This document shows positions 22,637 through 58,135 of a DNA stretch of 64,000 nt, piece after piece (the stretch's first letter is position 1; the number at the start of each line of letters is the position of its first letter). Location of the stretch: contig CANRKE010000001.1 of assembly GCA_947631135.1 (NCBI GenBank), positions 8,475 to 72,474 on the forward strand, in the 5' to 3' direction. Position numbers and translations under genes: made by a program. A model generated the notes under the pieces. It ran no database searches. It saw nothing but the letters and a program-made list of their open reading frames with translations, and was not told the DNA's origin. Source of the stretch: an uncultured Bacilli bacterium. Its GTDB lineage: Bacteria > Bacillota_I > Bacilli_A > RF39 > UBA660.

Positions 22637-22696
22637 ATTAATATCTCTCCTTCCGCCATGACTAATTTTTAGCCATAGAAATTCCATTGCGTTACT

Positions 22697-34746: not shown

Positions 34747-36006
34747 TCAATTTTTTAATGTACCAATAGATACGACATAAACACCATCATCTCTTTTATA
34801 TGAATAATTTGCTCCTGTTAATACCATTAAAAATGATGGTTCTCCACATTTTTTAGTATCTACTCTTTCTTTAAATTTAATAAGATTTTTTGCAGCTTCA
34901 TCAATATAACCTGCACCTAACTTTATTTCAATTGCTCCCCATTTGCCATTTTCTAACCTTAAAATAGCATCTACTTCAAAGTCTTTTTCATCTCTATAAA
35001 ATGATATTTCTCCACCATAACTTTGAGAATATATTTTTAAATCTCTAATACATAATGATTCAAATAAAAATCCAAAAGTCTTTAAATCATTAATTAAGTC
35101 GCTTGGACTAATATTAAGAATTGCAGTAGCTATAGATGGGTCAACAAAATATTTTTTAGGTTTAGTTCTCATTGCATATTTACTTCTTAAATTTAAATTA
35201 GTTGCTCTTACATTTTCTATTACAAATAATTTTTCTAATGTGTTCATATAATCATTTAATGTTGGTCTAGATATTTTACTATCAAACATATTATTAACAT
35301 CATCACTAATTGTAGTATTAGATACTTGAGTTGATATATTTCGCGCTAATGATCTTAATAAACTTTGCATTTTTTCTGGATTTCTTTCTATACCATCTAT
35401 ATATTTTATATCTTCATGAATTAATGATTTAACGTATTCTTTTGAAAATCTATATTTTGAATCACTCTTTACTTCTATTGAAGCAGGCCAGCCTCCTCTT
35501 ACAATTGCGCTAGCAATATCTTCTAATTTTAATTTTGATACTCCACTAATATCTTTTCCCATAAAAATATCTTCAAGTGATATTTCGCCAGTAGATTCAC
35601 CTGATTCATATAAACTCATAGTTCTCATAAGCACTCTAGAAATTCTCCCTGTTCCAGTATGCATTGTTTCACCCTCACTTGGCTTTGCAGATCCTGTTAA
35701 AATATATTGACCTTTTAATCTTGAATGATCTACATCAGTTCTAATAGCATCCCAAACAACTGGATACATTTGCCATTCATCAAACAATCTAGGTTTATCT
35801 CCATTTAAAAATAATGATGGTTTAGTATTTTTTATTTCTTCATATTCAGCTTTTCTGTCAGGATTTTGAAATTCAATTACACTCTTTGAATGAAAAGCAC
35901 CAGTTGTTGATTTACCACACCATTTGCACCCTTCTATTAATACTGCACCCATTACTTCCATAAGTTCATTTATTTCTTTATCTATAACTCTTGGAATATA
36001 TTTCAT
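34747..36006 (-). CDS. AAA+ superfamily ATPase (COG1373/DUF4143-type)
   Basis: Walker A GCKWCGKST and Walker B-like RLFDEWQ; start set at MKYIPRV. Paralog of 18260-19540. Confidence 0.6.
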   Translation of the reverse strand: MKYIPRVIDKEINELMEVMGAVLIEGCKWCGKSTTGAFHSKSVIEFQNPDRKAEYEEIKNTKPSLFLNGDKPRLFDEWQMYPVVWDAIRTDVDHSRLKGQYILTGSAKPSEGETMHTGTGRISRVLMRTMSLYESGESTGEISLEDIFMGKDISGVSKLKLEDIASAIVRGGWPASIEVKSDSKYRFSKEYVKSLIHEDIKYIDGIERNPEKMQSLLRSLARNISTQVSNTTISDDVNNMFDSKISRPTLNDYMNTLEKLFVIENVRATNLNLRSKYAMRTKPKKYFVDPSIATAILNISPSDLINDLKTFGFLFESLCIRDLKIYSQSYGGEISFYRDEKDFEVDAILRLENGKWGAIEIKLGAGYIDEAAKNLIKFKERVDTKKCGEPSFLMVLTGANYSYKRDDGVYVVSIGTLKN

Positions 36007-36232
36007 ATAACATTCTCCTCTCAAAATAATTATAACACATTTTACAAAAAAAGCAAATATCATTTTACATTTTAAGCAATTTTTGTTTTACAAAAAAAGC
36101 AAGTTATAAATATAGATTTTAAAATACTTATTATCTATATTTATAATTTATTTTTAAATTTTAAAATTTTAATATATTACTTATAATTTTTTATTTTTAT
36201 GAAAATACTAACATTAGAAATAAGGTGATATA

Positions 36233-38214: not shown

Positions 38215-39417
38215 TTATTTATCTTTTAATATTAATTCATTTAATTTATTAATTTGACTATTTAATAAAGTACATAGTTTATTAATTTTTTTATCACTTA
38301 TTTTAGTTAAATATTGATATTGATGTAATAAATTATCAAACCAATCTATTATACCATCTAACTTACTTACATCTATTCTTTTCAAATCTTTTACTACTTT
38401 TATTATTTCATCAAAAGGTTTTATTTCATAAAACATTCTTCCATTACCTGAAATATGTATTTCTTCATCATCATAATATTCAATACTTAAACTTTGTCCA
38501 TTATCAAAAATTGGAGCTATATCAATCCATTTTAAAGTATTAACATCTCTAATAATACCAAAATTATTTAAATGTCTATCTTCGTTCATAATAATAAAAT
38601 CTAAAATATACATATTCTCTACTTTTTCGCGAGCATCTTTAATATTCTGTTCTTCTAACTTTTTAATATATTCTTCATAATAATTTATATTATCATATCT
38701 TTTCATATCATTTATTATTTGATAACATGTAACAAATTCTGTATCTTTAGTTATAAAACAAGGACATTTAGATACAACTTTTTCTTTATATATATCTATT
38801 GTATATTCTACGTGATCAAATCCTAATCTTCTACATATTTCACTAGCTAATACTTCATTAAATGGTTGTAGAATTTCATTTTTATAACCACCTTTCAACA
38901 AATACCTTGTATCTTTATCAATAATCCAAGCTTTTTTTAACATTCCATCTGTAGTGTTATTAGGAGTTTTTAAAGAAGATGCTTTTGTTATTATCCCACT
39001 ATTAGTTGATAAAGATGCTTCCATAAATTCTGCATAATCAAAATCATGATCAAAAAAATTAATATCATTATAGGAAATGTTACTATCATAAGGTTTTAAC
39101 CAATATTGATCAGATAAAGATAGACCAAAAGCTTTATCTAAAAGTTCATAAGGGGCTGTTATATTTAATCTATGTAATAATAAATCTAATTTATCACGCC
39201 ATGTTGGGATTCCTCTTCCTTTAAACCATTCACTTAAATTAGTTATAAAATTTATATCATTAATATTTTTTTCTATATAAAAACTTTTTAAAATATATGG
39301 TGCATAATTAATATTTTTTATTTCATATATTTTATCAAAAAACTTTGAAGTTTCATTATATTCGGCAATTAAAATTTCTACATTTTTGTTCATAAGTATA
39401 CATTTCATAAAAAACAC
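38215..39417 (-). CDS. HipA-like serine/threonine kinase family protein
   Basis: MNEDRHLNNFGII...WIDIAPIFDNGQSL parallels the HipA catalytic loop (D-x-HxKNFS) and the downstream L-APAYDL motif. Confidence 0.55.
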   Translation of the reverse strand: MFFMKCILMNKNVEILIAEYNETSKFFDKIYEIKNINYAPYILKSFYIEKNINDINFITNLSEWFKGRGIPTWRDKLDLLLHRLNITAPYELLDKAFGLSLSDQYWLKPYDSNISYNDINFFDHDFDYAEFMEASLSTNSGIITKASSLKTPNNTTDGMLKKAWIIDKDTRYLLKGGYKNEILQPFNEVLASEICRRLGFDHVEYTIDIYKEKVVSKCPCFITKDTEFVTCYQIINDMKRYDNINYYEEYIKKLEEQNIKDAREKVENMYILDFIIMNEDRHLNNFGIIRDVNTLKWIDIAPIFDNGQSLSIEYYDDEEIHISGNGRMFYEIKPFDEIIKVVKDLKRIDVSKLDGIIDWFDNLLHQYQYLTKISDKKINKLCTLLNSQINKLNELILKDK

Positions 39418-39552: not shown

Positions 39553-41238
39553 TTATCTTTTAAAATTAATAACTATTTGATAAAGATTACCTAAATCTTG
39601 TTCATTTATTTCAATTCCATAACCATTTCCTTGTAAATTCATTATTGTATTTCTTATAACAGCAACTGCTCCTGTAATATCTTGTTGCATTATCATTGAT
39701 TGTGATGATGGATTATCATTTACTTGAGGTTCTTGCATTTGTTGAGGTTGTTGTTGATTATACATGTTCATATCTGCATTGTTTTGTTGCATATTTTGTT
39801 GAGGTTGCATATACATTTGTTGATTGTTCATCATATTATTTTGATTGATATTTTGATCATAATTTGGTTGTTGATAATTATTCATAGGATTATTTTGCAT
39901 CATATTATTATCCATTTGATTATTCATAGGGTTTTGTTGAACTGTTTGATTCATATTATTCATAACAGGTTGTTGCATTTGTTGTTGTTCCATATTATTG
40001 CCTTGTTGCATTCCATAATTATTCATACCATTATTTGGCATATTTTGTTGCATTTGTTGAGGTTGCATATTACCCATATTTTGTGCTTGCATATTTTGTT
40101 GCTGCATATCATTCATATTATTATCTTGCATTTGTGGGTTTTCATCAGGTAATGAACTTTCTGTAAAATTACTTATATCTTGATTATTTTGTTCACTTTC
40201 TGCTTCTTGTGCTTCTTCGGGAGCAGGTATATTTGGCATTTGCATATCATTATTTTGTTCCATATTTTGGTTATTCATATCTACTTGATTGTTAGTATTC
40301 ATTTGTTGATCTTGCACAAATTGTGTTGGAGTTGGAGAAAATGAAGAATCAAAATTCATATTAGCTGCTTGATTATCATAGTTAAAAAATCTTGATGGTT
40401 CTTGTACTTGTGCATTATTAACTACTTGTTCATTTATATATGCTCCATTTTGTTGACTACTATTTATATTTATTTGGTCGTAATCTGGTATATTTGGTAT
40501 ACCACTATTAGCAGTAAAATTATCTATTACTGGACTATTATTTTCATTCATATTATCACCCTTTTTATTATCATCATCATCTGAAAAATCTAATATTTCT
40601 TCAGTTTGTTCCAAATTACTATTATTATCAATTAAATCTTTTATATATTTATCAGTTTCTCTTACTGTCATTCTTTTTTCTATGATTTTATTTAATGTAT
40701 CATTTTGCATATCATGATCTTTTAATCTCAATAAACTTCTTGCATGTCTTTCACTAATTTTATTATCTAAAACAGCTTGTTGTGCTTCATTTGATAGATT
40801 TAATAATCTAAGTTTATTTGATATTGTAGATTGTCCCTTACCTATTTTTTTAGCAAGTTCTTCTTGTTTGATTTGTCCTAATCCTAATATTTGTTGGTAA
40901 GACTTTGCTTCTTCTATAGCAGTTAAATCTCTTCTTTGTACATTTTCAATCAAAGCAATTTCTGCTGATGAAGAATCATCTAATTCCATAACAATTGCAG
41001 GAACGGACATCAAACCTATCATACATGCTGCTTTATATCTCCTTTCACCTGCAATTATTTCAAACTTGTCTCCCAACTTTCTTAAAACTAATGGTTGTAT
41101 TATACCATATTGTCTAATCGATTCGGCAAGCTCATTTAATAATTCTGGGTCAAAGTTTTTTCTAGGTTGAAATCTGTTCGGTATTATGTTGTTAACTGAA
41201 ACATTTTCTATTTTCATTTTACTATAGTCAATGTTCAT
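39553..41238 (-). CDS. ParB/Spo0J/Noc-family protein with a long Q/N/M-rich low-complexity insert
   Basis: ParB N-terminal domain (IIPNRFQPRKNFDPELLNELAESIRQYGIIQPLVLRK...IIAGERRYKAA) and HTH, then ~280 aa dominated by Q, N and M, then a short C-terminal domain. Follows rsmG, as noc/spo0J do in Firmicutes. Confidence 0.75.
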   Translation of the reverse strand: MNIDYSKMKIENVSVNNIIPNRFQPRKNFDPELLNELAESIRQYGIIQPLVLRKLGDKFEIIAGERRYKAACMIGLMSVPAIVMELDDSSSAEIALIENVQRRDLTAIEEAKSYQQILGLGQIKQEELAKKIGKGQSTISNKLRLLNLSNEAQQAVLDNKISERHARSLLRLKDHDMQNDTLNKIIEKRMTVRETDKYIKDLIDNNSNLEQTEEILDFSDDDDNKKGDNMNENNSPVIDNFTANSGIPNIPDYDQININSSQQNGAYINEQVVNNAQVQEPSRFFNYDNQAANMNFDSSFSPTPTQFVQDQQMNTNNQVDMNNQNMEQNNDMQMPNIPAPEEAQEAESEQNNQDISNFTESSLPDENPQMQDNNMNDMQQQNMQAQNMGNMQPQQMQQNMPNNGMNNYGMQQGNNMEQQQMQQPVMNNMNQTVQQNPMNNQMDNNMMQNNPMNNYQQPNYDQNINQNNMMNNQQMYMQPQQNMQQNNADMNMYNQQQPQQMQEPQVNDNPSSQSMIMQQDITGAVAVIRNTIMNLQGNGYGIEINEQDLGNLYQIVINFKR

Positions 41239-47454: not shown

Positions 47455-48378
47455 CTAATAATATATAGTTATTGTATGATGAGTTTTACTTTTTTTATTT
47501 TTCTTTCCCATACACCATATTAAATTATCTAATTCAACAGAATTTATAATTATATTTTTTTCTTTTAGTTTTTCTTTTATTATTTCAATTACATATAACA
47601 TGTTAGCTCTAATTTCTATTTCCATTTCACTATCATGTAATAATTCTACTTCATTATCGACAATATCTTCTAATGCATCATTGTATACTAAAATACCATA
47701 ATCTCTGAATGTTCTTGGTATTCCATAATCAGCACACCCACTTAAGTTATTTACATTTTTTAAATTATTATTAATTGTTTCTGATAAATAATATAAATCA
47801 TTTGTAAGTAAAATTGCACGTTTATTAAAGTGTATTATTTTGTTTTTATAAAAAGACTTATCGTCAAAACTTTTAAAGTTATTTGTAATATAATTTAATA
47901 AATCTATATCTTTTTTTATAGAAAATATTTCATTATAAAAATTCTTATTATCATAAATATAATTTATTGTTTCAATAAAATTATTATATCTCTCATTTAA
48001 TAATGGAATTTTTCCTTCAACAGAATTAAAAATATTTTCAAATTGTTTTTTATTAATTGAATGTAAATATTCTATATTTAAAAATTTTGAATTACTTTCT
48101 ACTTTTTTTATTATTGAATAAAATAAAGCATTTGATCCACTCATAATTTCATGATTATATTCTATTTTCCATTTTGGTTTTTTCCAAAAGCAAAAATTCA
48201 TAGATTCTATTATAAAAGCTAGTAATATCCATTCTTTCTCACTTAATTTAATATTTAAATCTTTTGACCAATGTTTATAATTAATTTCTTTTAAGTTATT
48301 TATAAAGTCATTAATCTTATTATTATTGATTTTAACATATTTACTATTTTTTACTACATATTCAAATTCATCTTTCAT
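47455..48378 (-). CDS. Queuosine-salvage family protein (DUF2419/Qng1-like nucleotide N-glycosylase)
   Basis: CADYGIPRTFRDYGILVYN...SEMEIEIRANMLYVIE parallels the Qng1 signature ADYRVPQLLRALGALRYS...EEQEIRAASILAVE. N-terminal MNFCFWKK parallels LNFSFWSD. Confidence 0.6.
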   Translation of the reverse strand: MKDEFEYVVKNSKYVKINNNKINDFINNLKEINYKHWSKDLNIKLSEKEWILLAFIIESMNFCFWKKPKWKIEYNHEIMSGSNALFYSIIKKVESNSKFLNIEYLHSINKKQFENIFNSVEGKIPLLNERYNNFIETINYIYDNKNFYNEIFSIKKDIDLLNYITNNFKSFDDKSFYKNKIIHFNKRAILLTNDLYYLSETINNNLKNVNNLSGCADYGIPRTFRDYGILVYNDALEDIVDNEVELLHDSEMEIEIRANMLYVIEIIKEKLKEKNIIINSVELDNLIWCMGKKNKKSKTHHTITIYY

Positions 48379-48381
48379 ATA

Positions 48382-48936
48382 CTATTCCTTTCTTAATAAT
48401 AATTTTTTACTTTTTATAATATTGTTTATTTGTAACATTGTATTGTCAATAGAATTATTATTATCAACAATATAAATTTTATCATATTTTTTATATAATT
48501 GTAAATAAACATTGTTTTCATAATTATAAAAATCTTCATCAAAAATAAAATTATTTCTTTTTTGTAATCTTTCTTTAATTTTATATTTGCTTACTTTTAA
48601 ATATATAGTGTGTGGATGAAATATATTTATAGATAATATTTCATCGGCTGTTTCTTGTATTGTTTTTTTTAGTTGATAATTTAACCTAATTATAGTTGTA
48701 TAAAAGAATCTATCAAATATATAATTACCATTATTACATTCATATATATTGGCTTCATGTCCTATTATATAAATTTTTTTTTGTAACTCTGCATTACAAG
48801 TTCTGGCAAATTCTATATATTTTCTATACCAATCAGGGATAGATGTTCTAGGAATAATATTATATTCTTTTGATATATGTTTAATTAATGTTGATTTGCC
48901 AGATCCATTACTTCCTTCTAAAACTAATATTGACAT
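48382..48936 (-). CDS. P-loop nucleoside/nucleotide kinase (deoxynucleoside kinase / thymidylate kinase-like)
   Basis: Walker A VLEGSNGSGKSTL and a DRF(F)Y motif resembling the TMPK/dNK DR(Y/H) motif; 184 aa. Confidence 0.6.
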   Translation of the reverse strand: MSILVLEGSNGSGKSTLIKHISKEYNIIPRTSIPDWYRKYIEFARTCNAELQKKIYIIGHEANIYECNNGNYIFDRFFYTTIIRLNYQLKKTIQETADEILSINIFHPHTIYLKVSKYKIKERLQKRNNFIFDEDFYNYENNVYLQLYKKYDKIYIVDNNNSIDNTMLQINNIIKSKKLLLRKE

Positions 48937-50945
48937 TATATTTTCCTCATTACTAATACATGTTTTTGTGAATTATTTCTTGTTTTAATTTTAATATCAT
49001 GAGAATTTCCTATATCATAATCCCAAAAATTCCTATTTATGATTTCTAGTATATCATTTAATTCAAAAAACATTTGATTAAAATCATATTCTTTAATTAT
49101 TTGATTTTTATAATACAACTTATAAACTGTTTGTTCTTTCGCACTTTTAATATCATAATGACGTTGAATAACTAATTTATATTTTTCATCGACATATAAT
49201 TCTTTGTAAAAATTTGTATCCACACTTTCTCTCCATATTTTATTAAAACAGTCAAATACTATTATTCCGTTTTTTCTTAATATTAAATATATTTTATTTA
49301 ACATTTTACTTAATTCTTCTTTATTGCTATAGCAGTTATATAGGCTATATGCATAATCAAAAAGATAATTAAAATTGTGCATCAAAAAATCATCTTTTAT
49401 ATAAATAAAATCTTTTTCATTACCAATAAATTGATAAGATTCATAATCTATACCTACTATGTCATTATATCCTGCCTTTTTTAATTGATTTGCTATTCTT
49501 CCATATCCACACATGATGTCTAGTATTTTACCATTTTTATTTGAAAAGATTTTTGAAAGAAAATCTATTTCTTTTATAGTATAATTTGACATTGCTTTCG
49601 ATGTGTAATTGTGATATGTACCTAATTCATTAAAAGATTTTCTATCTTTGATTATATTAACGTTCATTTTTTCATTATCTAATTGATCAGCAAATAAACT
49701 ATTATTTATATTGTTTTGATTTAATATTATTTTAATTTCTTGCTTTTGAATCATACTTAAGAAATTAGTGCATATTATAATATAATTTTTAAATAATTCA
49801 TAGTTTAATTCATTTATATTTCTTTTTAAATCATTAATAATTGCAATTATTATACTTGTTTTACTGTAGTTTTCTATATTTGGTAAGTATAAATCATTTG
49901 TACCATAAACCACAATTTTATTAAGTATATTTTTTTCATTGTATTTTTGATTATTTGTATTCGATAATAGAATATATCCAAAAAATTTTCCTAATGCATC
50001 AATTAAATATTGTCTATCATATTCATTATTTTGCATTTTTAAAATATATTCTTTAAATATCATACTTTGCTTTTTATTATTGATAAAATTAAATGGATTA
50101 CTTTTGTAGGTAGTATTAAATTCTGTAGAAAGTATGATTGGAAGTTGAGATTTAACTGTTTTTTTTCTGCCATATATGATACCAAATTGATTAAATTCGT
50201 TTATTAGTTTTTCTTTTAAATATGATGGAAAATATATATTATTAGCAAATAAGTTCAAATAATTATTGGAATCTATATTATTTTTTTTAAAAAAATTATG
50301 AATATTAATTATAAATTCTTTCCTAAGTTTATTAAATTCAAGTCTATCATAATTTATATTAAAACCTTTTAATATTGAATCAGCTAATATTCCTAGATAT
50401 ATATTGTCATTTTTTTCAATATGTGAAAAATCTAGATGAATATAATGATCTTTACCATCTTCTGTTATAAACGATGGCGAAATAAAGTTAACTGTAATTC
50501 TTGAATTGTCAGTTCCGTAAGCAAAAAATAAGCTAGTATTTCTATCATGTGATATTTTTTTAATTATTATTTCTTTATTTAATTCACAAATATTTTTAAT
50601 AAGTTTTTTAGATACTAGATTTATAGTGCTTTTTATACTATTATATATACCATTTAGTCTTATAATATCTATTTCCCCAGCAAATAATAATTTTAGATCC
50701 AAGTCAAGATATTTTTTTTCAAAATTAAAGTTAGTTGTTTTTAAAAATTCTATTATTTTTTCTATATCTTTTTGATTTTCATATATAATCATGAAATCAA
50801 AATCTCCAATTTTATTTTTATTATTATACTTTATAGAATCGTAAGCAAATCCTCCACCTGTTACAAATGATGCATTGATATTATTATCTTTTAACAATAA
50901 ATTAATTTCTTTACAAAAATTACTTCCTACATTTCTGTAATTCAT
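48936..50945 (-). CDS. Two-domain protein: N-terminal polymerase-beta-type nucleotidyltransferase-like domain fused to a C-terminal class I SAM-dependent methyltransferase
   Basis: N-terminus VTGGGFAYDSIKYNNKNKIGDFDFMII (hG[GS]-x(n)-DhDh). C-terminus ILDIMCGYGR (motif I), VGIDYES (post-I acidic), LRKNGIIVFD (motif III). Confidence 0.55.
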   Translation of the reverse strand: MNYRNVGSNFCKEINLLLKDNNINASFVTGGGFAYDSIKYNNKNKIGDFDFMIIYENQKDIEKIIEFLKTTNFNFEKKYLDLDLKLLFAGEIDIIRLNGIYNSIKSTINLVSKKLIKNICELNKEIIIKKISHDRNTSLFFAYGTDNSRITVNFISPSFITEDGKDHYIHLDFSHIEKNDNIYLGILADSILKGFNINYDRLEFNKLRKEFIINIHNFFKKNNIDSNNYLNLFANNIYFPSYLKEKLINEFNQFGIIYGRKKTVKSQLPIILSTEFNTTYKSNPFNFINNKKQSMIFKEYILKMQNNEYDRQYLIDALGKFFGYILLSNTNNQKYNEKNILNKIVVYGTNDLYLPNIENYSKTSIIIAIINDLKRNINELNYELFKNYIIICTNFLSMIQKQEIKIILNQNNINNSLFADQLDNEKMNVNIIKDRKSFNELGTYHNYTSKAMSNYTIKEIDFLSKIFSNKNGKILDIMCGYGRIANQLKKAGYNDIVGIDYESYQFIGNEKDFIYIKDDFLMHNFNYLFDYAYSLYNCYSNKEELSKMLNKIYLILRKNGIIVFDCFNKIWRESVDTNFYKELYVDEKYKLVIQRHYDIKSAKEQTVYKLYYKNQIIKEYDFNQMFFELNDILEIINRNFWDYDIGNSHDIKIKTRNNSQKHVLVMRKI

Positions 50946-50958
50946 ATTTTTTCCTCCT

Positions 50959-51798
50959 TTATTTTCTTAAATACATAGTACATACGTTATTTTTTGTCAT
51001 TACTTTACTCCTAGAATACATAGTTTCCATTGGTAAATAAACACCATTTTCTTGTTTTTTAATATAATCGGAAATAATATTATATATGGTGTATAGTTTA
51101 TCATTTCTTTTTTTTATTTCTTTATTGGACCAATTCATTTTCTTATAAAACTCAATATTATTTTTATAAAAATTATAATAATTTTTGTCTTTATTTAAAT
51201 TATCAGAAATATATCCAATAGTATATTTTGAATCATTATAAATATCAGATAAAAATATTATTTCTGTTTCATCAAAATTTTTGGATGCTTTTTCTTTAAA
51301 TTTTTTTTCATGAGTATTCAATTCTTTTTTCCAATTAGGATTTAGGTCATAATTAGTATTTTCTAAAAATATATTAGCTAAAGTTATTTTAAAGTTTACT
51401 GGTATCTTTTCTTGTTGAAATAAATTTTTTATTTCTTTTAGTATATTTAATCGTTTAGAATTATTTTCACCTATATAATCTTTATATCCAGTATTCGTAT
51501 ATCCTGGACAAAAAATTGCATTAAAGTTGATAATAGAATTATTAATTATATAATATATAAAAGATGTTAAATCTTTTTTAGTATTATACTTATAATCAAA
51601 GTAACAATTTAATTTATTAATTATGTTCCATAAATAATTTATGTTGTTTATATCTACATTTATTAATTGTTTTTCAATAGAGGCATCACCGTTTTTTATT
51701 AATCCAGTAATTATAGATTTAATTATTTTTGTGTTTTCAGCAGTATGTACTATATTTAATTTATTAAATATATAATTATAATCAAACATTTTAATCAC
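50959..51798 (-). CDS. Hypothetical protein (279 aa), operon member
   Basis: Intact ORF tightly packed between the flanking genes; no family recognised. Confidence 0.5.
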   Translation of the reverse strand: MIKMFDYNYIFNKLNIVHTAENTKIIKSIITGLIKNGDASIEKQLINVDINNINYLWNIINKLNCYFDYKYNTKKDLTSFIYYIINNSIINFNAIFCPGYTNTGYKDYIGENNSKRLNILKEIKNLFQQEKIPVNFKITLANIFLENTNYDLNPNWKKELNTHEKKFKEKASKNFDETEIIFLSDIYNDSKYTIGYISDNLNKDKNYYNFYKNNIEFYKKMNWSNKEIKKRNDKLYTIYNIISDYIKKQENGVYLPMETMYSRSKVMTKNNVCTMYLRK

Positions 51799-51865
51799 AA
51801 ATTCCTTTCATTTTATTCAAAATATACATAATTATAAAAAGCATTTATTTTTTCAACATAATTTT

Positions 51866-52669
51866 CTACTTTAGTCTTTTATCTAACTTTTTTTCATTAT
51901 TAATGATACCATGTGCATATACATTATGTTCATGAATTGACTCATAATTAATAAGTTCTGCTTCTATTTTATTATTATATTTTTCAGCAACAGCTAAAAG
52001 TAAATCTCTTATTAAATCTTCTGAAAATTTTGGATTTTCATAAGCTAATTCTGTAATATATTTTTCATCTGTTCTTTTAACTGTACTATATACATTAGAA
52101 CTAAATGACTTTTCCATTATATTGATAATTTCTTCTAAATTAATTTTTTCATAATTCTCGTGTAATATTATTGTTGCCTTACATTTTTGATTATGTGCCC
52201 CGTATTTCGATATGTCTTTGGAACAAGGACATAACATTGTTCCTATAATAGAAATTGATAAACTTTTTTTATTAATATCATTTATTTTGGAATTGTTTAT
52301 TTTCAAATTAACAGTAAAATAAGAATTTTTCTTTGAAATTGGTGAAATTCTTTTTAAAATAATATCAAAATCCATAGTTAATGACATATTGTTAGTTTCC
52401 GTTCTTTTTATTGTAGTATTTATAATTTCATTAATATCTTCAAGTGATATAATTTTATCACACAAATAGTCATTTAATACTTCAATAATTCTGCTTAAAT
52501 GTGCTCCACGAGAATTTTTTTCAAGTGAAACGTTACTAGATATATTACAGATTGAATGATACAATTTATTATTTATAGATAGTGTAATAGGTAATTTGTA
52601 ATCACAAATTCCAATATTACTTATAAAAATATTTCTATCATCTTTTTCATTTTGCAAATCTTTAAGCAT
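51866..52669 (-). CDS. GTP cyclohydrolase FolE2/MptA family (GTP cyclohydrolase I type 2)
   Basis: Matches three FolE2 signatures: RGAHLSR (G-x-H-M/L-SR), MLCPCSKDISKYGAHNQK (CPCSKEIS...GAHNQR) and C-terminal ESIHEHNVYA (ESIH-x-H-x-A-x-A). Confidence 0.7.
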   Translation of the reverse strand: MLKDLQNEKDDRNIFISNIGICDYKLPITLSINNKLYHSICNISSNVSLEKNSRGAHLSRIIEVLNDYLCDKIISLEDINEIINTTIKRTETNNMSLTMDFDIILKRISPISKKNSYFTVNLKINNSKINDINKKSLSISIIGTMLCPCSKDISKYGAHNQKCKATIILHENYEKINLEEIINIMEKSFSSNVYSTVKRTDEKYITELAYENPKFSEDLIRDLLLAVAEKYNNKIEAELINYESIHEHNVYAHGIINNEKKLDKRLK

Positions 52670-53519
52670 TTTTTAACACCTCTTCTATTTTTAATATATT
52701 CTCCTTATTTTTTAAAGCATCTATCCATTTTAAACTATTGTTCTCTATATAATCTCTATTTAAAATTTTCTTTTCATATAAATATACATCTTTCAACAAA
52801 TTATATATAATACAATATTTAAATAATAAATGTATATTGTTTTTTTCTTCTTTTTCAAGTTTAATATTATTATTAAAGTAATTTGAAATAAATACTTTTA
52901 TATTATCAATATCATAATTTTTATTTTTTATAAAAAACCACATAATTACTCTTATTATATCAATAAGTCTATTTCCAATATAAACGTTACCAAAATCAAT
53001 TAGAAATATTTTATTATTATTAATTATAATATTTTCCTTTTTTATATCTGAATGAACGATACATTTTGAAAGAGCATCAAGATTTATGTTTTGAATTTCT
53101 TTAAATATTTTATTTATAAAATTTAAATCTTTAGATAAATATTTAGATCTTATTGCTACACTATAATATTGGTTTAATTTGTTTAGTGATTCTTCATTTT
53201 CTTTATGTTTTTTTATTTTTTCATTAAGAGGTATAGAGTGAAGTTTTTTCAATAATAATGCCAAATTTTTAAAAAATGATTTATCAAAAGTATTAGGATT
53301 ATTTCCATATATATATTTTAATATCATTACATTTTTTGAATTAAAAATAAATTTTGAAATTAATTTAGGACTCTCAAAATCATATTTTTTAAGATATTTT
53401 AAAATCTTAATTTCAAAGCTATTATCAATTTCACTCATTCTAATTATATATTTTTGTTTTCTTATTGTAAAAATGTATACATCATTTATGTTATTATTTT
53501 TAATTTTTTCTAAATTCAC
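52662..53519 (-). CDS. Protein-kinase-like fold phosphotransferase (APH/choline kinase/CotS family small-molecule kinase)
   Basis: Brenner motif VHSDIKKEN (HxDxxxxN) and LIDFGN (DFG-like). 8-nt overlap with the downstream FolE2 gene. Confidence 0.6.
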   Translation of the reverse strand: MNLEKIKNNNINDVYIFTIRKQKYIIRMSEIDNSFEIKILKYLKKYDFESPKLISKFIFNSKNVMILKYIYGNNPNTFDKSFFKNLALLLKKLHSIPLNEKIKKHKENEESLNKLNQYYSVAIRSKYLSKDLNFINKIFKEIQNINLDALSKCIVHSDIKKENIIINNNKIFLIDFGNVYIGNRLIDIIRVIMWFFIKNKNYDIDNIKVFISNYFNNNIKLEKEEKNNIHLLFKYCIIYNLLKDVYLYEKKILNRDYIENNSLKWIDALKNKENILKIEEVLKNA

Positions 53520-53575
53520 ATATATTCCCCCTTTTTCTAAAACTTTAGTATATTATTCCAAGAAATCGCTAATTA

Positions 53576-53604
53576 TTCTATTACTTTTACAATTAAATGT
53601 CAAT
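53576..53604 (-). promoter_or_regulatory. Candidate promoter of the six-gene island operon
   Basis: Minus strand TTGACA-17 nt-TAGAAT, ~50 nt upstream of the first gene's AGGGGG RBS. Confidence 0.35.
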
Positions 53605-53898: not shown

Positions 53899-54477
53899 AT
53901 GAAAAAAATAGATTTAGATGAATTCGATGATTCAAATATGTTTGCTAATGATACTATTGAAAATTTAAAAAAAGATTGTAAGAACGGTTTTCAATTATTA
54001 AAAATAATAATCGATGGAAAGCCAAAAAATATTAATCCTCTAACAGAAATACCAGAACCTCAAATGAGATTGTTTGGCTTTTCTGATGCTTTTAATAGTG
54101 TATATTTTGAAACTGAAGAAGAATTAATTGAATGGGCAAAAGAACATAATAGAGATTCTGATAGTATACGCGTAATGGATTATTTAGGAACAGTTGCTGG
54201 TCGTAGTGATGTAATTAGAGTAAAATATCCAGGTGGAAAAGATTTATTATTTACTCATTGTGATGAAGATGGATATGGAATATACAATTATAACAGAAGC
54301 AATTATAGAGGCGAATTTATATGGGAATATAGTTACGGAAGCATTAGTGATATGTACAAAGAATTTAGAGATAGAGGTATTGTGTTTGAAAATGATATCT
54401 ATGCAAAAATTGAAGAAAGTAAAAAAGAATTATTTAAAAAGATTAAAGAAATAAATAAAAAACATTTTAACAAATAA
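53899..54477 (+). CDS. Hypothetical protein (192 aa) adjacent to oriC
   Basis: Intact ORF with GGAGG RBS; no recognisable family. Confidence 0.5.
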   Translation: MKKIDLDEFDDSNMFANDTIENLKKDCKNGFQLLKIIIDGKPKNINPLTEIPEPQMRLFGFSDAFNSVYFETEEELIEWAKEHNRDSDSIRVMDYLGTVAGRSDVIRVKYPGGKDLLFTHCDEDGYGIYNYNRSNYRGEFIWEYSYGSISDMYKEFRDRGIVFENDIYAKIEESKKELFKKIKEINKKHFNK

Positions 54478-54619: not shown

Positions 54620-54825
54620 AAATATTTCCCACAGGTATGTGGAAAAAATTGTGGAAAACTAACCCTTATAAAATATGGATAAACTTTAGTTTTCCACAGT
54701 TATCCACAGGCATGTGCAAAAAAAGTTAACAAGTGTGTAAACTTTTTCCACAGGATTGTGCATAACTTATATTTCCCAGTAAAAAATAAGATTTTTTCCT
54801 GTTGAAAACTTTGTGGAAAAAAATT
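54620..54825. promoter_or_regulatory. oriC DnaA-box cluster upstream of dnaA
   Basis: TTATCCACA at 54700-54708. TTTTCCACA variants on either strand at 54638-54646, 54650-54658, 54690-54698, 54744-54752 and 54812-54820. TTTCCCACA at 54625-54633. Confidence 0.7.
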
Positions 54826-57682: not shown

Positions 57683-58135
57683 ATGTTAAGTTATTATTTA
57701 ATTAATGATGAAACATGTGCTCTTGTTCCTGTTAATGAATATAAAACTAGAATATATGAACTTACTAGAAAATTTGAGGTTTCTCAAAATATTAAAACTA
57801 TAGTTAATGATAGTTGTTTAAAATTTGGTAGTTCTTATAGTGGACGTGCAGCTGCAACTAAATATGCTATTGGTTATACACATAAAGTTCCTATTTGTGT
57901 AAATGAATCAACATTAAATATATTTTTTCCTACTAAATCACCAAGGTTAGAGGATTGTGCATGGATAAGTTATAAAAATATATATATATATGGAAGAAAT
58001 AGTAAAAATTCATTTATAACATTTAGAAATAATGAAACAATACAAGTTGATGTTAGTTATGCTGTTATACAAAATCAATTATTTAGATCTTCTAGATTGG
58101 AATATTATGTCAAAAATACTTTTCCTCGTGTATAA
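57683..58135 (+). CDS. ComK-family competence transcription factor-like protein
   Basis: CLKFGSSYSGRAAATKYAIGYTHKVPICVNESTLNIFFPTKSPRLEDCAWIS aligns with B. subtilis ComK CRFFGSSYAGRKAGTYEVTKISHKPPIMVDPSNQIFLFPTLSSTRPQCGWIS. Confidence 0.7.
   Translation: MLSYYLINDETCALVPVNEYKTRIYELTRKFEVSQNIKTIVNDSCLKFGSSYSGRAAATKYAIGYTHKVPICVNESTLNIFFPTKSPRLEDCAWISYKNIYIYGRNSKNSFITFRNNETIQVDVSYAVIQNQLFRSSRLEYYVKNTFPRV

Follow-up and report, generated by a model that had tools for sequence, protein, structure and literature searches.

The 64 kb chromosome segment of an uncultured Bacilli bacterium surveyed in this work (contig CANRKE010000001.1, assembly GCA_947631135.1; hereafter the window) carries an operon of six co-oriented genes on its minus strand (47455–53519), the last of which belongs to the Qng1 family. 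Through Qng1, eukaryotes and some bacteria salvage queuine, a micronutrient. In the operon Qng1 stands together with a protein-kinase-like protein, a FolE2-type GTP cyclohydrolase and three families for which Pfam, the PDB and the literature hold no description: a 279-aa protein (U279), a nucleotidyltransferase (NTase) domain fused to a methyltransferase, and a small P-loop kinase. The order of the six genes was conserved at unrelated chromosomal sites in related gut Bacilli, and most Qng1 genes of the same clade were found without the kinase. We tentatively read the cassette as a GTP-centred nucleotide-tailoring module in which Qng1 releases the base at the end and also acts alone in salvage.

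Gene 1 (52662–53519; 285 aa; PF01636) encodes a protein-kinase/APH-like kinase and overlaps gene 2 (51866–52669; 267 aa; PF02649), the FolE2-type GTP cyclohydrolase IB, by 8 nt. These are followed by gene 3 (50959–51798), encoding U279, to which structure modelling with AlphaFold2 and Foldseek gave a HUP or class-I aminoacyl-tRNA-synthetase-like Rossmann fold, and by gene 4 (48936–50945; 669 aa), the NTase–S-adenosylmethionine (SAM) methyltransferase fusion. Gene 5 (48382–48936; 184 aa; PF02223), which shares 1 nt of its start codon with the stop codon of gene 4, encodes a P-loop kinase (PLK) resembling thymidylate kinase (TMPK), and gene 6 (47455–48378; 307 aa; PF10343) encodes a Qng1/DUF2419-family nucleotide N-glycosidase. 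The intergenic distances from gene 1 to gene 6 were −8, 67, 13, −1 and 3 nt, and the G+C content of the cassette was 18.9 %, compared with about 25 % in its flanks. An earlier note on this DNA had drawn attention to the last two genes, and both open reading frames (ORFs) were found as it described them, on the minus strand with 3 nt between them.

A promoter-like site (TTGACA-17-TAGAAT, 53575–53603, minus strand; 11 of 12 consensus positions, a pattern match only) lies about 55 nt 5′ of gene 1, which has a short leader, the ribosome-binding site AAAGGGGG and a GTG start. Such matches are common in DNA of this AT-richness (106 found versus 97 expected). No Rfam riboswitch was detected in the 550-nt leader region of the operon even at E ≤ 5, and none (preQ1, tetrahydrofolate, guanine or others) was detected upstream of the cassette in the window and 15 related loci.

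All six genes recurred, with their order unchanged, in L004/5, L006/7, L008/9, L014, L015, L019, L033, L035/36 and L043, loci of related genomes that were read with flanks of up to 10 kb; in L044 the cassette was cut at the contig end. Protein identities across loci ranged from 45 to 77 %. The kinase was gene 5 of the conserved operon in all 12 distinct kinase-bearing loci, so that the kinase–Qng1 pair to which the earlier note pointed is no two-gene unit: the kinase occurs only as part of the larger operon. Its junction with Qng1, which varied from a gap of 4 nt to an overlap of 17 nt, recurred in every related kinase locus for which enough sequence was available, and the adjacency of the two genes is therefore not a matter of chance.

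The genes next to the cassette were unrelated among loci (purF/comB, ffh/mazEF, mraY–ftsW, Mob remnants and serine recombinases). According to the titles of their records, the hosts are uncultured gut ‘Bacilli’ represented by metagenome-assembled genomes from human, rabbit, rodent and ruminant samples. The cassette was confined to uncultured low-GC gut Bacilli, at different chromosomal sites. It was absent from the viral contigs of IMG/VR, and a scan of JGI metagenomes with the NTase-methyltransferase protein returned only two loci. With the six cassette proteins, PADLOC gave weak P-loop and kinase-fold matches (≤ 34 bits) and nothing for four of the six; an anti-phage defence system was rejected on the strength of this result and of the absence from viral contigs.

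Large serine recombinases (Resolvase, Recombinase and Zn-ribbon domains) were encoded 300–450 nt 3′ of the cassette Qng1 gene in four genomes (L008 6771–8333, L014 7209–8861, L015 11232–12875 and L036 14750–16330), with a further one upstream in L036 (3549–5198), so that in L035/36 recombinases lie on both sides of the cassette; the window has none. They were 24–39 % identical to each other, except for those of L014 and L015 (92 %). Their positions suggest an integrative element in or at which the cassette lies. Two other neighbours were restricted to particular loci. In one lineage (L004 11489–12193, also L005) a homologue of ComB-type 2-phosphosulfolactate phosphatase (PF04029) follows Qng1 by about 10 nt, and a separate gene for a 131-aa Nudix protein precedes the cassette, closely in L014 (452–847) and at a distance of 7 kb in L035/L036 (~951–1351).

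Variant operons showed which genes travel together. U279 directly followed FolE2 in every variant seen. The two genes stood alone between transposases in L040, and in L037 they were followed by a GTP-cyclohydrolase-II (GCH II)-like protein. The tail of the latter 6.1-kb metagenome contig (~4900–6116) turns GC-rich and carries unrelated ORFs; it is probably a chimera, in which the join may have truncated the GCH-II-like gene. In a more distant operon, L042 (39–49 % identity, 22.6 % GC), genes for a Qng1-like protein, FolE2 and U279 precede one for a 509-aa protein that includes a GCH II domain and, after it, one for a CYTH (triphosphate tunnel) protein; no kinase was seen on this contig, which ends just upstream of Qng1. 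The reappearance of Qng1, FolE2 and U279 in another gene order is a classical sign of functional coupling. In L034 the position of Qng1 behind the five module genes is taken by a Nudix hydrolase gene, which overlaps the last of them by 14 nt. FolE2 and U279 thus form the invariant core, accompanied by Qng1, Nudix or GCH-II/CYTH proteins, and the position after the kinase is filled by different hydrolases acting on nucleotides.

FolE2 is the most securely assigned enzyme of the cassette. Gene 2 matched PF02649 over the whole model (219.6 bits, cutoff 25; E = 7e-65) and the FolE2 structures 2r5r and 3d2o (E = 2e-43), with the CPCSK, GAHNQ and ESIH motifs aligned, and scored slightly under the cutoff of the NCBIfam FolE2 equivalog (192 versus 215 bits). 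Its constant companion U279 matched nothing in Pfam or NCBIfam and no PDB sequence even at E ≤ 10, and a comparison across 40 members gave no consistent weak Pfam match; its 86 relatives are all without Pfam domains. An AlphaFold2 model built from 40 sequences had a mean predicted local distance difference test score (pLDDT) of 94. Searched against the PDB with Foldseek it gave weak matches (E = 1e-3 for the isonitrile synthase PIsnA; template modelling (TM) scores 0.44–0.59) to PIsnA, to cyclodipeptide synthases and to the catalytic cores of tyrosyl- and tryptophanyl-tRNA synthetases, the last with the best TM score (0.59, on the target), and nothing useful was found among the viral structures of BFVD. 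The model indicates a HUP, or class-I-synthetase-like, Rossmann fold in which the conserved stretches FCPGYTxxGYK and PMETMYSRSKV would occupy the usual positions of the nucleotide-binding loops.

The C-terminal part of the gene 4 product (aa ~450–669) is a class I SAM methyltransferase (Methyltransf_25/23/11 matches at aa 456–571); a profile search of the PDB returned small-molecule methyltransferases only, and the similarity is generic. Its N-terminal domain (aa 1–~445) was represented by 34 clusters in 1.84 billion proteins, and the distant relatives are proteins of about 450 aa without the methyltransferase and without a Pfam match. In the AlphaFold2 model of this domain (pLDDT 88.7) the first ~125 aa matched Pol-beta-type nucleotidyltransferases (Tam41, Cid1, CdnE, LnuA and MenT) and the SpoT synthetase domain, and the invariant residues G31, S37, D48, D50 and D83 reproduce the expected G[GS]...DxD...D pattern. 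The domain is therefore modelled as a new, putative Pol-beta-type NTase. Gene 1, present in all full cassettes, matched the APH family (PF01636, E = 2.5e-14) and has the invariant motifs HSDIKxEN and IDFGN; a profile search of the PDB gave generic kinase matches only. Two known systems that combine such activities, Hen1/Pnkp-type RNA repair and LicA/LicC-type activation of phosphocholine, were considered and rejected, as both leave FolE2, U279 and Qng1 unexplained and the methyltransferase similarity is generic.

The kinase encoded by gene 5 has the Walker A loop GSNGSGKST. It matched the thymidylate kinase family in its C-terminal half only (PF02223, 30.7 bits; cutoff 27), and fell below the cutoffs of the deoxynucleoside kinase (dNK) family (PF01712, 18.7 bits; cutoff 27) and of the thymidylate kinase equivalog (TIGR00041, 33.7 bits; cutoff 83.25). 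A single-sequence search of the PDB returned P-loop noise only, and a profile was needed; with a profile of 20 sequences TMPKs came first (7e-11 for Aquifex to 1e-7 for Staphylococcus aureus), followed by Bacillus subtilis YorR (1e-6), and dNKs appeared only at about 0.01. A search of 5.8 billion clustered proteins yielded just 26 relatives. Its invariant residues are E7, G8, K14, S32, R38, R45, D75, R76, R84, R123 and R127. Like TMPKs, it has the P-loop, a DR(F/Y) motif (here DRF, D75 and R76), an Arg-containing LID (R123 and R127) and a similar overall length. It differs from them in having Asn or His (Asn in the window) where the TMPK P-loop G-x-D-G-x-G-K-[ST]-T has Asp, and in three further invariant arginines, Arg38, Arg45 and Arg84. 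Its acceptor and LID regions are rich in Arg. In TMPKs the thymine-binding segment after DRY reads S/T-x-x-A-Y-Q-G; here it is not kept, and the stretch is Y-[ST]-T-I-I-R-L-N-Y with the invariant R84. The catalytic Glu of dNK/dCK enzymes sits in an E-P-V-x-x-W motif and is also missing, the equivalent stretch being K-S-[IV]-P-D-W with the invariant Ser32.

The protein is thus no ordinary thymidylate kinase: the equivalog score, the P-loop Asp, the thymine-binding motif and the small size of the family all point away from it, as the earlier note had supposed. Neither of the two outcomes that the note had named as refuting its proposal was observed, since the 307-aa protein does score with the Q_salvage model and the kinase is not an ordinary one. 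By its sequence the protein is most likely a non-thymidylate kinase of the nucleoside monophosphate (NMP) type, with a nucleoside as acceptor less likely; because the similarity to TMPK profiles is far better and the dNK Glu is missing, the step catalysed may be that from NMP to nucleoside diphosphate (NDP) rather than from nucleoside to NMP.

Gene 6 was placed in the Qng1 family without difficulty. Its product matched PF10343 (Q_salvage) at 155.1 bits (E = 3.7e-45; gathering score 25) over model positions 9–285 of 285, as the earlier note had anticipated, and matched the sequences of two crystal structures, that of human QNG1 (E = 5e-19) and, more closely, that of Qng1 from Sphaerobacter thermophilus (E = 1e-32); it has 431 relatives. 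Its residues were mapped by a MAFFT alignment onto those of the structural study (PMC9881137), and S. thermophilus numbering is used here. The catalytic Asp of the helix-hairpin-helix (HhH) motif, D231, and K199, which orients the ribose, were kept in the window protein and in 23 of 23 aligned relatives. D231 acts as nucleophile or stabilizes the oxocarbenium ion, and N72 and D207 form a proton relay (PMC9881137); in the relay D69–N72–D207 the latter two residues were kept and D69 was replaced conservatively by Glu throughout the clade. The residues that recognize the deazaguanine (D298, W302 and a Leu at the aliphatic position 203) and those that stack on the ribose (F75 and Y232) were also present, as were E267, H316 and the C-terminal Tyr (the protein ends in ...TITIYY), whose free carboxylate is part of the Qng1 active site with E267 and H316 as partners (PMC9881137).

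The pocket for the side chain of the base was a different matter. Of the aromatic residues that hold the cyclopentenediol (W48, Y93, W94 and W299) only W48 was kept, and the other three were Ser, Asn and Asn; the corresponding residues of human QNG1 are Y, W and Y. Around the 5′-phosphate R80 was replaced by Lys, K233 by Gly and Q306 by Lys, so that positive charge was kept but redistributed. The pocket changes, like that of D69, were shared by the entire clade, whether a cassette was present or not. The sequence evidence largely establishes the 307-aa protein as a true HhH N-glycosidase of the Qng1 family with the catalytic Asp and Lys intact, and the clade should cut a guanine-like base of the 7-deazaguanine type from a ribonucleoside 5′-monophosphate. 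Its pocket for the 7-substituent is predicted to be wider and polar, and queuosine 5′-monophosphate (Q-5′MP) as substrate is plausible but unproven, because the residues that hold the cyclopentenediol are changed. The changes thus count against Q-5′MP as the substrate, not against membership of the family. Annotation of the two genes as ‘thymidylate kinase + queuosine salvage protein’ would mislead.

Qng1 was more often found without the module than with it. A search with the Qng1 query of contigs from one genome per species gave 23 loci, comprising three full cassettes, 18 loci with a Qng1 match of at least 230 residues and no kinase detectable within the up to 10 kb of flanking sequence at hand, and two with Qng1 fragments only. 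The stand-alone genes had no conserved neighbour, whether transporter or tgt, and their contexts were all different. Cassette-linked and stand-alone Qng1 sequences interleaved in a neighbour-joining tree. The genomes with a cassette include CAMBIR01, CAMOWA01 and CAZJSD01, and their sisters without one include CAKOMW01 (L013), SVAP01 (L010) and CAKPHZ01 (L011).

Two deletions could be mapped. Loci L006 and L013 have 15 kb of flanks that are 96–98 % identical (tblastx), and L013 lacks 5.2 kb (L006 5233–10463), from gene 1 into the kinase gene, of which the last ~100 nt remain in front of an intact Qng1 gene. In L001–L003 kinase residues 72–184 only (no start and no P-loop) precede an intact Qng1 gene with the 3-nt spacing, at the same mraY–ftsW site where L035/36 has the full cassette. 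In L043 the FolE2 and NTase-methyltransferase genes are split whilst those for the kinase and Qng1 are intact; the split genes, in two or three ORFs, lie at L043 976–1768 and 2610–4620, and the NTase-methyltransferase gene of L035 (10843–12826) is split likewise, which may reflect either decay of the module or assembly errors. Each of the two mapped deletions has an end point within the kinase gene and leaves Qng1 in place, so that Qng1 is independent of the kinase; the idea that a kinase is required upstream of it, put forward in the earlier note, is contradicted by these recent deletions, which removed the P-loop, and by the 18 of 23 loci without a detectable kinase. Genes 1–5 constitute an accessory module subject to repeated loss, and selection maintains Qng1 in its own right, most simply as a base-salvage enzyme.

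Three promoter-like hexamer pairs, again pattern matches, were found within the kinase coding sequence 5′ of Qng1 on the minus strand (48421–48449, 48476–48505 and 48689–48716). The 339 kinase nt kept in L001 would include the equivalents of all three, and the ~100 nt kept in L013 that of only the one nearest Qng1 (48421–48449). The 3′ end of the kinase gene was kept in both natural deletions, which may have preserved an internal promoter for Qng1.

In the reading that we tentatively prefer, FolE2 would consume GTP with U279 as its obligate partner, and the NTase-methyltransferase and the two kinases would tailor a non-canonical guanine-type nucleotide and set its phosphorylation state. A terminal hydrolase, be it Qng1, the Nudix protein of L034 or the GCH-II-like and CYTH proteins of L042, would clear or convert the tailored nucleotide. 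Qng1 would do so by freeing the base from the 5′-monophosphate, following the logic of LOG, BlsM and MilB, and the P-loop kinase would control the NMP/NDP (or nucleoside/NMP) balance for it without being an obligatory feeder of queuine salvage. Its acceptor in this scheme would most likely be an NMP or, with lower probability, the guanine-like nucleoside that Qng1 also handles. Candidate bases are queuine, another 7-substituted deazaguanine or a pterin-related compound.

Several points weigh against this reading. The known product of FolE2, dihydroneopterin triphosphate, has no N-glycosidic bond, and FolE2 and Qng1 would therefore have to stand on converging branches rather than in line. The connection between the two is deduced from gene linkage only, and the chemistry of the module as a whole is inferred rather than shown. 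The acceptor of the kinase, NMP or nucleoside, is likewise deduced from sequence similarity. The side-chain pocket of Qng1 differs from that of both solved enzymes, which makes the class of base uncertain, and frequent loss of the module would also be expected of unrelated genes that merely share a transcript.

A bolder version, which we consider improbable, is that the cassette is an undescribed GTP-based route that builds or remodels a 7-deazaguanine-type nucleotide without QueD, QueE and QueC, with Qng1 releasing the base for use in tRNA, in the way that LOG frees cytokinins, and that genomes with Qng1 only scavenge the same compound from cassette carriers. As part of this version, the new enzymes of the route would be the HUP-fold partner of FolE2, the NTase-methyltransferase and a TMPK-like kinase for a modified guanine nucleotide. 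The cassette has in common with known 7-deazaguanine clusters (preQ0/queuosine, Dpd and toyocamycin-type), which start with FolE/FolE2, a GTP cyclohydrolase I and a deazaguanine-handling enzyme. No homologue of QueD, QueE, QueC, QueF, tRNA-guanine transglycosylase (TGT) or DpdA was found in the cassette or within 10 kb at any locus, and proteins of new families take their places. Motif scans for TGT and QueC of the window and 554 kb of related loci were negative, with one match that was MnmA-like.

In the two-step salvage proposed in the earlier note, the kinase would be a queuosine (7-deazaguanosine) nucleoside 5′-kinase in a route from nucleoside through Q-5′MP and queuine to TGT, the other four genes being separate or auxiliary. 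We regard this as doubtful, although it has arguments on its side. Qng1/QNG1 prefers Q-5′MP, and the kinase that makes it was stated to be unidentified in the 2023 structural paper (PMC9881137); no junction in the operon is tighter or better conserved than that of kinase and Qng1; the kinase is clearly no housekeeping Tmk; TMPK and dNK share one fold, so that a nucleoside acceptor is possible; and genomes without the kinase could obtain Q-5′MP from tRNA turnover. However, an intact kinase was never found with Qng1 alone but always in the company of the first kinase, FolE2, U279 and the NTase-methyltransferase as well. In profile searches it resembles NMP kinases more than nucleoside kinases by about nine orders of magnitude, and it has no dNK Glu. 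Most Qng1 genes of the clade have no kinase, and both mapped deletions spare Qng1 and destroy the kinase. L034 keeps the kinase with a Nudix protein instead of Qng1, L042 has Qng1–FolE2–U279 with no kinase seen on its contig, which is cut just 5′ of Qng1, and the aromatic cyclopentenediol pocket is not kept. The earlier observation of two tightly linked genes is thus confirmed, and its interpretation as two-step salvage is only partly supported.

If instead the pathway were a folate-like, pterin one, FolE2 would make dihydroneopterin triphosphate, the other enzymes would process the pterin, the last gene would remove or rearrange its phosphorylated side chain (with CYTH acting on the triphosphate), and Qng1 would have been recruited, away from queuosine, to a pterin or to a ring-opened GTP intermediate with the 2-amino-4-oxo face of guanine. 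Nudix enzymes (NudB/FolQ) are known dihydroneopterin-triphosphate pyrophosphatases, and a Nudix protein replaces Qng1 in L034. FolE2 is the firmest assignment and with U279 the invariant core, L042 includes a CYTH triphosphatase and a GCH II domain besides, and Qng1 has lost the queuine-specific pocket but kept D298, which reads the 2-amino-4-oxo face. We nevertheless hold this to be unlikely, as the residues retained for N-glycosidic catalysis and ribose, and the positive charge kept around the 5′-phosphate, suggest that the substrate is a true nucleotide, most genomes have a solitary Qng1 without FolE2 in its vicinity, no folB, folK, folP or queD homologue occurs in any cassette variant, and neither a tetrahydrofolate nor another riboswitch was found upstream.

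The abundance of orphan Qng1 genes, the small number of cassettes and the deletions that spare Qng1 recall orphan immunity genes, and would suit a module that makes a guanosine-analogue antimetabolite whose toxic nucleotide is destroyed by Qng1 or the Nudix protein. Mobility is suggested by the adjoining serine recombinases, mazEF and Mob remnants and by the low G+C content (18.9 versus ~25 %), and kinases, NTases and methyltransferases are typical tailoring or resistance classes. Even so we think such a system quite improbable: no exporter, known biosynthetic core enzyme or PADLOC match was found, the cassette is absent from viral contigs, the hosts apparently have small genomes (one relative has a contig of 1.3 Mb) of a kind that seldom carries secondary metabolism, and queuosine salvage explains the retention of Qng1 more simply. 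Lastly, the six genes might be functionally unrelated, sharing no more than a transcript, and the adjacency of kinase and Qng1 a historical accident. The module is dispensable and decaying, and no known pathway combining these enzyme types was found in the literature; but order, orientation and overlapping or near-abutting junctions are kept at 45–60 % protein identity in at least five genomic contexts, and Qng1–FolE2–U279 is re-created in a different order in L042, which makes this very improbable indeed.

Qng1/QNG1 has been characterized as a Q-5′MP N-glycosidase in S. thermophilus, Schizosaccharomyces pombe and human (PMC9881137). The protein described here belongs to the same family and keeps the catalytic, deazaguanine, ribose and carboxylate residues of those enzymes, but has an S/N/N pocket, Glu for D69, Gly for K233 and Lys at positions 80 and 306; its operon with FolE2 and new enzymes is a context unreported for Qng1. 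A survey of Qng1 neighbourhoods published in 2024 looked only for transporters, and the transporter encoded beside one qng1 gene unexpectedly carried preQ0/preQ1, not queuosine, an observation compatible with other substrates for Qng1 subfamilies. Neither a queuosine kinase, nor anything relevant to a Qng1–FolE2 cassette or similar GTP-cyclohydrolase clusters, was found in the literature searched up to 2026. The known bacterial enzymes QueK, a Ca2+-dependent nucleoside hydrolase of Rossmann fold, and QueL, a radical-SAM lyase (Yuan et al., 2019, summarized in PMC9881137 and PMC11130926), would serve the same end, the recovery of a deazaguanine base for tRNA in gut bacteria; neither is present here, and the glycosidase of the cassette is of the HhH-fold, nucleotide-preferring type. 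LOG (cytokinin riboside 5′-monophosphate phosphoribohydrolase), BlsM and MilB are base-releasing nucleotide hydrolases (PMC9881137) for which the proposed logic is the same, in that a base is built or tailored at the nucleotide level and then freed from ribose 5-phosphate by a dedicated, cluster-encoded NMP N-glycosidase. Those enzymes are Rossmann-fold multimers unrelated to Qng1, however, and the likeness is one of gene context only.

What feeds Qng1, that is, the kinase making Q-5′MP, is an acknowledged gap, and this operon of gut Bacilli ties Qng1 genetically to a GTP cyclohydrolase and three undescribed families. Should the module act on queuosine-type nucleotides, its kinase and tailoring enzymes would be the first ones dedicated to free deazaguanine nucleotides, and queuine producers and scavengers in the gut would have to be counted differently; should it act on pterins, the Qng1 fold would have been recruited to new chemistry. 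The near-identical presence/absence pair L006/L013 could serve as a ready-made natural knock-out.

The window, of ~25 % GC, surrounds the replication origin, and the operon lies between the origin region and rpmH. On the plus strand dnaA, dnaN, recF, gyrB and gyrA follow from 54.9 kb, the minus strand below 47.3 kb carries rpmH, rnpA, yidC, jag, mnmE, mnmG and rsmG, and the sign of the GC skew flips near 54 kb. Divergent from the cassette, between its promoter region and dnaA, is a 192-aa ORF without a Pfam match (53899–54477, plus strand), with a terminator-like hairpin just downstream (54625–54646, minus strand). A ComK-family competence regulator (PF06338, E = 5e-39; 57683–58135, plus strand) is encoded between dnaN and recF, an interval that in the canonical B. 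subtilis origin holds a small yaaA/rlbA gene. Also proximal to the origin are genes on the minus strand for a HipA_C-like toxin-type kinase (38215–39417) and a DUF4143/AAA_14 ATPase (34747–36063), near a long ParB of 561 aa (39553–41238). The sole Rfam match in the window at the gathering score was an L31-Firmicutes ribosomal-protein leader (RF03156, 38.4 bits; 22647–22678, minus strand).

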